From: a virus
Lineage: Duplodnaviria; Caudoviricetes
Strand: one strand, 5' to 3'
Virus record (IMG/VR): IMGVR_UViG_3300037311_000136
Coordinates: 1-53,939 of that record
Length of the DNA: 53,939 nucleotides
Shown: positions 53,341-53,790 of the stretch, piece after piece
Layout of the letters: each line of letters begins with the position of its first letter
Position numbering within the stretch: position 1 is the stretch's first letter
Notes under the pieces: model-generated
Seen by the model: the letters and a program-made list of their open reading frames with translations, nothing else
What the model was told of the DNA's origin: nothing
The model's database searches: none
Translations under genes and position numbers: made by a program

Positions 53341-53790
53341 TCACTGTCCCCGATTCCCTCCGCCTATTTTATTCCCCGCGCGAAAGTTTTTTCGTTTTGT
53401 ATATAAATACGAGGAGCCGAAAGGCGACGAAGTATTTATATTTATTGCGTCCGCTATATTGCGGGCGCCTCACAACTGCGGCAGGATACTTCGCGGCGTC
53501 TATGCATTCGTATGAAATGGCCACTGTAATGAACGTTGTTCACGAAGTGAACTCTTCTCGTTGCGCTTGTTTCATTGCGTATGTATTTAGGCTTCGCGTT
53601 TGCCCCAAGCGTTCGCATTGGCGCTGCATCGAAACCGGCTACACGAACCCGCATTGAATGGGGACAGTGATAACATGACTAAGCATTGGTTCGTTGCGCC
53701 GCTTTCTTCGCTAAGCAGGGGCAAACGCAAGCCCTTACTGCTCCCCCGCTCCGCTTCACACTCCGCAATAACTCGGGTTATTTCACTTCG
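53341..53790. other. Structured non-coding element (ncRNA or origin candidate)
   Basis: 15-bp closing inverted repeat and several perfect hairpins; no convincing ORF. Confidence 0.5.

Follow-up and report, generated by a model that had tools for sequence, protein, structure and literature searches.

Transcript-primed origins are used by family-A DNA polymerases, as at the T7 primary origin and with ColE1 RNA II. The primase of RSF1010 uses two inverted repeats of 40 nt within oriV as start sites (PMC8567376, in the excerpt available), and according to the accessible part of a review (PMC13037366), mini-hairpin sequences of the GCGNAGC type often occur where phage replication is initiated and at RSF1010 ssiA. 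Pseudomonas phage tf carries the nick-site consensus TACTRTGMC in 14 copies, all on one strand (PMC3517423, in the excerpt available). Here we describe a 711-nt non-coding gap in a phage genome of 53,939 nt (IMG/VR record IMGVR_UViG_3300037311_000136; this whole stretch is called the window). The phage is a novel freshwater lineage without close relatives or a cultured member. We tentatively favour, at somewhat less than even confidence, a reading of this gap as the main control region of the phage, most likely with a replication origin and strand-specific hairpins. As we read it, the gap is a mosaic of short words in both orientations, two like strand-specific hairpins and an AT-rich tract beside the first replication gene.

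The gap resembles RSF1010 oriV (ssiA/ssiB) in that two hairpin-forming inverted repeats lie on opposite strands of one non-coding region (PMC8567376, as excerpted), and in having a mini-hairpin word of the C-GAA-G type in a hairpin with an AT-rich segment nearby (PMC13037366, as excerpted). Compared with an oriV of this type, the resembling opposite-strand hairpins were found, whereas a cognate primase and initiator-bound direct iterons were not: unlike RSF1010, the phage has no recognised RepB'-like or other primase, no 20-bp direct iterons and no sequence similarity to it. The phage hairpins also differ from the 40-nt conserved ssi sites of RSF1010 in being 41 and 96 nt long with purine-purine loops.

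The likeness to transcript-primed origins lies in a promoter-like site and an AT-rich tract beside the replication genes, in the encoded family-A polymerase, and in a candidate primer strand that is G-rich over a C-rich template. However, by consensus the promoter is a weak one, the scans of open reading frames (ORFs) recognised no gene for a phage RNA polymerase, including a virion RNA polymerase, and the candidate transcript would run leftward, away from the replication genes.

The mini-hairpin motifs GCGNAGC/GCGNNAGC of the G4, St-1 and alpha3 initiation sites and of the N4 early promoters (PMC13037366, as excerpted) have counterparts here in seven C-GAA-G words and two exact GCGAAGC words, both on the minus strand (24-30 and 53591-53597). 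The known cases involve single-stranded DNA phages or a virion RNA polymerase, whereas the phage described here is double-stranded and no such polymerase was recognised in it. A word dispersed over the genome is similar to the nick sites of phage tf in being a 9-mer with about 13 exact copies and an ACTGT core in a podophage-sized genome (PMC3517423, as excerpted). Unlike the tf sites, it is equally distributed between the strands, and its remaining bases differ.

By their large terminase, the nearest named phages are HMO-2011-type roseophages of similar genome size (Roseobacter phages CRP-2, CRP-235, CRP-603 and CRP-9), at about 25% identity (23-26%, over half of the protein). Core genes of HMO-2011-type podophages include a DNA primase and a DNA helicase, as given in the part of the paper available, whereas no primase was recognised here. 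The words origin, terminal repeat, permuted, termini and intergenic do not occur in the text of that paper.

A non-coding gap with two strand-asymmetric hairpins

The last 127 nt of the window are an exact repeat of positions 1-127, so the assembly is circular and the window was treated as a 53,812-bp circle. On this circle, the gap extends from the stop codon at 53324 across the joint to the next gene, and it is the largest in the genome according to the codon-based gene call. It lies between ORFan early genes and the replication genes, directly upstream of the plus-strand replication module. Seven candidate ORFs within it score between -0.29 and 0.0 bits per codon, six of them negatively, on a scale where the median of spurious ORFs is -0.15 and most real genes lie above 0. 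Five of these ORFs were scanned against Pfam and matched no family. The gap is non-coding, and no credible ORF crosses the region by codon scores or Pfam, in agreement with the non-coding element of the original prediction.

The composition of the gap is extreme at its right side, which holds the most AT-rich 60 nt of the genome and the start of its strongest C-over-G tract (Table 1). The top C-minus-G window of the genome, at 53721, has a C excess of 35 per 200 nt, and the C/G ratio of the plus strand stays between 1.5 and 2.5 from 53681 to about 228. Within this tract, 9 of the 13 plus-strand fold windows score above 0, which is no better than composition predicts, and none falls below -1.4.

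The best-supported piece of the gap is a 96-nt hairpin on the minus strand, which came first in an unbiased genome-wide scan for local folds on both strands. In shuffling tests with RNA parameters, its minimum free energy (MFE) of -44.0 corresponds to a z-score of -9.16, and none of 200 shuffled sequences was as good; the plus strand of the same locus reaches only -20.4 (z -2.6). With DNA parameters, z is -2.2 for the minus and -0.55 for the plus strand. The MFE structure accounts for 88% of the ensemble and consists of seven helices with 30 pairs, including 2 G.U pairs, separated by six internal loops that all place G(N)A against G(N)A. At the same loop positions the plus strand would have pyrimidine mismatches, a pattern that a plain DNA palindrome cannot give. 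The loop pattern points to selection on the single minus strand, either as RNA or as single-stranded DNA. Half of this hairpin lies outside the element outlined in the original prediction.

On the plus strand, a cluster of three hairpins starts about 50 nt past the stop codon of the upstream gene, with a z-score of -4.6 on shuffling compared to -2.1 for the minus strand. It includes the hairpin at 53401-53441, and the 10-bp stem (53401-53410/53432-53441) with a GCC-GAAA-GGC cap that had been described there is present. This hairpin and the 96-nt hairpin on the opposite strand are alike: they have the same style of loops, and both carry the 10-mer GCGACGAAGT near the tip.

Inverted repeats, short words and the proposed closed domain

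Perfect inverted repeats of at least 10 nt are in clear excess in the gap, with five in its 711 nt compared to a mean of 0.23 over 539 genome windows. The only windows with three or more such repeats are those that overlap the gap, and the maximum in 1000 Markov simulations was two. These repeats interleave and share arms, which is the pattern of binding sites and not of one nested fold.

The original prediction described a highly structured element closed by an inverted pair of a genome-wide motif. All its sequence features are where it had placed them, including the AGCAG/GGGC...GCCC/CTGCT and AATAAC-TCGG-GTTATT hairpins and the minus-strand CAGC-GAA-GCTG at 22-32; the GTTCAC-GAA-GTGAAC hairpin is present as well, without being significant by itself. 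The gap is statistically special in its repeat excess and its composition, but the 330-nt unit closed by the motif is not borne out. The closing arms can form 11 perfect pairs, a 1-nt bulge and four more pairs, and the sequence between and including them (53341-53670) has a folding z-score of -4.2 for the plus and -3.4 for the minus strand, or -2.4 when DNA parameters are used. Its folding energy, like that of the 96-nt hairpin, is thus outside the shuffled range, and three other windows anchored on 11-nt inverted repeats score -0.1, -1.6 and -2.5. However, the interior without its closing arms reaches only -2.4, and the closed domain ranks 64th of 195 in the local-fold scan, with that entry on the minus strand. 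When 330-nt windows are laid out as a grid and corrected for composition, the region is flagged only if a window is anchored on the closing repeat. The closing pair also crosses three perfect repeats (53424/53785, 53542/53782 and 53596/53719), so that all of them cannot coexist in one nested fold.

The closing motif pair is itself unexceptional in number. Throughout the genome, there are five 11-nt perfect inverted repeats spaced 50-500 nt apart compared to 5.6 expected by chance, and 10 inverted pairs of the motif lie at most 400 nt apart, where a rough hand estimate for random placement gives about 9. The copies at 53341 and 53670 therefore need not pair. With a closing helix crossed by three repeats, a low rank in the scan and motif pairs at about chance frequency, the element closed by the motif pair is not supported as a unit, and in our reading the region is not one folded 330-nt RNA.

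The motif itself, the dispersed word (Y)ACTG(Y)CCCC, is strongly over-represented. It has 13 exact 9-mer copies compared to 0.41 expected and ranks first among 420 permutations of its own letters. Its 7-mer core occurs 50 times, about once per kb, with 25 copies on each strand, and lies inside genes in all codon phases. Copies are found, for example, at 7487, 9099, 11828, 12489, 15631, 20105, 30048, 32881, 37369, 41668 and 42515.

Several short words are concentrated in the gap, which is the densest window of the genome for TG[CT]CCCC, with 4 of its 28 copies (0.37 expected, p = 5e-4). CGAAG occurs seven times compared to 1.9 expected (p = 0.003), five of them on the minus strand, ACGAAGT three times compared to 0.17 (p = 6e-4), and 2 of the 8 genome copies of GCGAAGC are in the gap (0.11 expected, p = 0.005). 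We infer that the TG(Y)CCCC boxes, including both motif copies, and the (GCG)ACGAAGT/C-GAA-G words are putative protein-binding or mini-hairpin sites.

Table 1. Positions of the features of the gap in the window
Feature	Position	Strand	Remarks
Main part of the gap	53325..53939		Last 127 nt equal window 1-127
Continuation of the gap to the first gene of the replication module	1..223		ATG at 224 with a strong ribosome-binding site; TTG at 125 possible
Left motif copy (11-mer core and extension)	53341..53356	+	Extended 13-14-mer in common with the copy at 41665-41680
Cluster of three hairpins, plus-favoured	53373..53487	+	Rank 9 of 195 in the scan, z -4.67
Hairpin with perfect 10-bp A/T-rich stem, GA/GAA and GA/GA internal loops and GCC-GAAA-GGC cap	53401..53441	+	z -5.2 plus, -5.4 minus
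10-mer GCGACGAAGT	53424..53433	+	3' side of the apical part of the 53401-53441 hairpin
G+C-rich 8-bp hairpin with one G.U pair	53447..53468	+	z -4.5 plus, -2.4 minus
GTTCAC-GAA-GTGAAC hairpin	53538..53552	+	One ACGAAGT copy; alone not significant, z -0.4
Second long-range inverted repeat, left arm	53589..53606	+	Contains TGCCCC
Right inverted motif copy	53656..53670	-	Pairs with 53341-53356
Start of the strongest C-over-G tract of the genome	53681..53939, on to about 228 after the wrap	+	Plus strand C-rich and unstructured; minus strand G-rich
Second long-range inverted repeat, right arm	53718..53735	+	Contains GGGGCA
96-nt hairpin	53747..53842 (reads 53842 to 53747)	-	Top match of the genome-wide scan, z -7.35, rank 1 of 195
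10-mer GCGACGAAGT	53785..53794	-	Apical part of the 96-nt hairpin
Promoter-like site	53867..53895 (= window 83-55)	-	TTGACA, 17-nt spacer, TG-extended TATTCC, A/T tract upstream; predicted start near 53861
Most AT-rich 60 nt of the genome	53869..53928 (= window 57-116)		80% A+T; contains a 35-nt near-palindrome

Genome layout, relatives and neighbouring features

Among public sequencing runs, the phage was found in one DNA run, probably the source sample, and no RNA run was listed. An independent assembly of this sole run is also circular and has no variants, joints or loose ends. The genes form two arms. The plus-strand arm runs from 49159 through the wrap to about 13000 and consists of the ORFan early genes followed by the replication genes, which encode a PD-(D/E)XK exonuclease, the family-A polymerase, an HNH endonuclease, a RuvC-like resolvase, a dGTP/dATP diphosphohydrolase and an SF2 helicase. 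The minus-strand arm, from 49100 down to 13958, includes the genes for the terminase, the portal and virion proteins of very large size. Comparison of 51 ORFs with PHROGs and of 31 ORFs with Pfam brought up no recognisable primase family, and these scans gave no initiator family either. No tRNA or tmRNA was found in the window. Rfam gave no match at gathering score in the whole window and none at E <= 5 in 53200-53939, with two chance-level matches in window 1-400; the search of this database advised in the original prediction thus returned no family. Readings of the element as a retron, an intron or an omega-RNA were discarded on the same negative Rfam result and because no partner gene was found among the ORFs scanned, which did not include every small ORF.

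The proteins of the phage are distant from those known. The family-A polymerase has at most 27% identity to the 15 named-phage matches listed, and the search also counted one match in the 60-80% identity band, which is outside the matches listed. The nearest exonuclease among 5.8 billion proteins has 48% identity. An alignment-based search gave 21 loci with 29-40% exonuclease identity that have only the exonuclease-polymerase order in common with the window, and no relatives came up when viral contigs were searched with the exonuclease or the polymerase as single proteins. Seven exact 16-mer matches in viral contigs were rejected as relatives, as the contigs have nothing else in common with the window and the matches are due to chance. 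The dispersed motif is absent from the 21 relatives. Six complete relatives show no common architecture in crude gap calls or inverted-repeat densities.

In the closest complete relative, the strongest local structure is a palindrome of 154 nt (contig positions 55036-55189; z about -7 for either strand), made up of repeated units containing TAGCTA. It sits in a 646-nt non-coding gap, 4 kb upstream of the exonuclease gene, and may be an analogous control element of different architecture. Several relatives have matches to the family-A polymerase in two pieces about 0.5-1.7 kb apart. This suggests an inserted intron, intein or endonuclease gene, without counterpart in the polymerase of the window.

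A bacterial host was also sought through the dispersed motif. Close inverted pairs of it were found in 111 scattered stretches of prokaryote genomes, 80 of which were listed, and in four of the five of these genomes that were tested the motif counts were at background. The fifth, the genome of Roseimaritima sediminicola, contains the 9-mer 187 times compared to 7 for the control. The copies listed form tight local clusters, many with regular spacing (e.g. every 18 nt), which suggests tandem arrays that are probably unrelated to the phage.

The ORFan directly upstream of the gap (52713-53321, plus strand) encodes a C-terminal, zinc-ribbon-like CxxC-x13-CxxC motif. Its sole match is a PHROG without an assigned function; the 5.8 billion proteins contain no other homologue. 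Further upstream, the 227-nt space between two early genes holds a very stable plus-strand hairpin (52141-52223, scan z -5.35; 52141-52260 on shuffling, z -6.35, with the opposite strand much weaker). Its arms contain degenerate copies of the dispersed word, and it could be an RNA processing or attenuation site. Strong local structures with z about -5 are also seen at 38929-39119 (both strands) and 5678-5810 (minus strand), beside two endonuclease genes, one homing-endonuclease-like (38197-39063) and one of the HNH type (4997-5623). Both genes lie in low-GC DNA and their codon use is atypical, as inserted mobile genes would show.

The exonuclease gene is immediately preceded by a near-consensus sigma-70 promoter (882-910, plus strand) with TTGACA, a 17-nt spacer and a TG-extended TATAGT (11 of 12 matches), which suggests that the host polymerase reads standard promoters. 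At the divergent junction of the two gene arms (48300-49866) the coding potential is weak: the codon scores of ORFs 49159-49488 and 49541-49861 are negative and that of 48357-49100 is barely positive. This junction may be a second sizeable non-coding control region.

Possible origin, control region or transcriptional boundary

The reading of the gap as a control region with an origin is based, indirectly, on its place at the head of the replication module, its clustered words, its AT-rich tract, the like hairpins on opposite strands and the lack of a recognised primase. We infer from these features a possible use of the gap elements in transcription, binding or initiation. The original prediction had left open a non-coding RNA or a replication origin with a primer transcript: an origin or control region is now favoured, a single closed non-coding RNA is not, and the primer transcript remains a candidate. 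As a possible mechanism, the AT-rich tract would melt, or a leftward transcript would start beside it, and each strand would then expose a purine-loop hairpin as a single-strand signal. Priming would occur at the hairpins, with the G-rich leftward RNA, hybridised to its C-rich template, being extended by the family-A polymerase; alternatively, a primase not yet recognised might act there.

The promoter for such an RNA would be the sigma70-like site that had been noted at 83-55 pointing into the region. Its -35 box is perfect, and the 17-nt spacer and TG extension are present, but its -10 box is TATTCC and the site was not called by the consensus scan. The 96-nt hairpin follows the predicted start after about 19 nt. 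Apart from a weak 6-bp candidate, neither strand of the region showed an intrinsic terminator.

Several observations weigh against an origin in the gap. Its words were picked as enriched after the gap had been inspected, so that their p-values are optimistic. The gap has no DNA similarity to GenBank phages or to the 21 related loci, the six complete relatives contain neither the motif nor a window of similar repeat density, and the strongest structures of the three relatives scanned differ in architecture. Elsewhere in the genome of the phage, hairpins of almost the same strength lie at 52141, 38929-39119 and 5678-5810. The z-score of -2.2 for the 96-nt hairpin with DNA parameters is not significant, a result in favour of RNA rather than single-stranded DNA provided that these parameters do not give too little weight to tandem G.A stacking, and the sole promoter-like site for a leftward RNA, uncalled by the scan, lacks the conserved last T (position 6) of the -10 box. 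Classical origin signals are missing as well: there is no DnaA-box cluster (117 matches with at most 2 mismatches in the genome compared to 120.6 expected, with only 3 distinct weak ones in the gap), and there are no long direct iterons, the repeat search having given no direct-repeat family of more than two copies. The cumulative skew that had been proposed as a check is uninformative, giving no origin signal at the gap. The net skew is positive around the whole circle, the raw extremes flank the gap because the cumulative sum starts there, and the detrended GC-skew extremes are at 12970 and 22087, away from the gap.

The gap could instead be a transcriptional boundary, which we consider rather unlikely but still a serious alternative. 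Early rightward transcripts would end in the plus-strand hairpins and in the C-rich, unstructured tract as a Rho-loading site. Equally doubtful, in our estimate, is the continuation of this scheme, in which a short leftward antisense RNA with the 96-nt hairpin, starting beside the AT-rich tract, would modulate the switch from early to replication genes without any role in replication. A C-rich unstructured tract is a feature of Rho loading sites, and the one found here follows plus-favoured hairpins placed shortly past the stop codon of the upstream gene. The significance of the 96-nt hairpin with RNA and not DNA parameters, and its position just after the predicted start, are consistent with the antisense RNA, and a small RNA that runs leftward between the regulatory genes and those of replication would resemble lambda oop. 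However, the weak 6-bp candidate is the only intrinsic terminator on either strand and the promoter was not called by the scan. A boundary also leaves unexplained the presence of the same words and hairpin style on both strands and the excess of crossing repeats.

Three further explanations concern the segment between the two motif copies. One non-coding RNA of 330-500 nt over 53341-53670 or beyond, closed by the motif pair, is very unlikely: the closed window folds better on the plus strand than the three other windows anchored on inverted repeats, but this is set against the crossed closing helix, the low rank of the domain with its entry on the minus strand, the modest score of the interior alone and the lack of an Rfam match, and also against the 50 core copies of a motif whose inverted pairs are about as frequent as random placement gives. 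Moreover, no promoter or terminator brackets the segment. Podophages usually have non-coding terminal repeats some hundreds of bp long, and the 330 bp might be the collapsed direct terminal repeat of a linear genome or mark a packaging end, with the motif nicked or cut on opposite strands. Both assemblies circularise through overlaps of k-mer size (127 nt in one, about 30 nt in the other), which is how a collapsed repeat would behave, and a 9-mer of similar copy number marks the nicks in phage tf (PMC3517423, as excerpted). The parallel is only partial, as the tf sites are all on one strand (PMC3517423, same excerpt) whereas the copies here are split 25/25. Coverage depth, available for the assembled contigs of the one run, is flat, and ends at this place would put the ORFan early genes at the right end, reading outward; we regard this explanation as just as improbable as the closed RNA. 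Scarcely credible is an insertion of the 330-nt segment, as a miniature inverted-repeat transposable element, into a shorter intergenic region. The segment is non-coding and strongly folding, and its terminal inverted repeats agree at 15 positions, the 16-nt left arm having one base more. Yet there is no target-site duplication at the borders, no second interior copy in the genome and no segment-free form in the sole run with the phage, and the sequence of the arms is found singly within genes about 50 times, in every reading phase. The remaining probability goes to neutral or other causes.

Within the favoured reading of an origin or control region, a more specific proposal is that the hairpins, with their common tip sequence GCGACGAAGT and G(N)A loops, are an undescribed pair of opposite-strand initiation signals, and that the leftward G-rich strand is made as a primer RNA for the family-A polymerase in a phage with no recognisable primase, which would make this a ColE1- or mitochondrion-like, transcript-primed origin of uncultured freshwater podophages. 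We put this forward as a long shot, in which the dispersed ACTG(Y)CCCC word would serve the same machinery as a second type of site, spread over the genome.

Hardly any uncultured phage has a known origin or control region, and here sequence statistics alone pick out one candidate. Its present value is that of a well-delimited, testable candidate and not of a demonstrated mechanism, and the region would be ordinary if it were only a transcriptional boundary. If the hairpins do act as initiation signals or primer RNA, they would show how replication starts with a family-A polymerase and no recognisable primase, and they would provide a structural signature that can be searched for.

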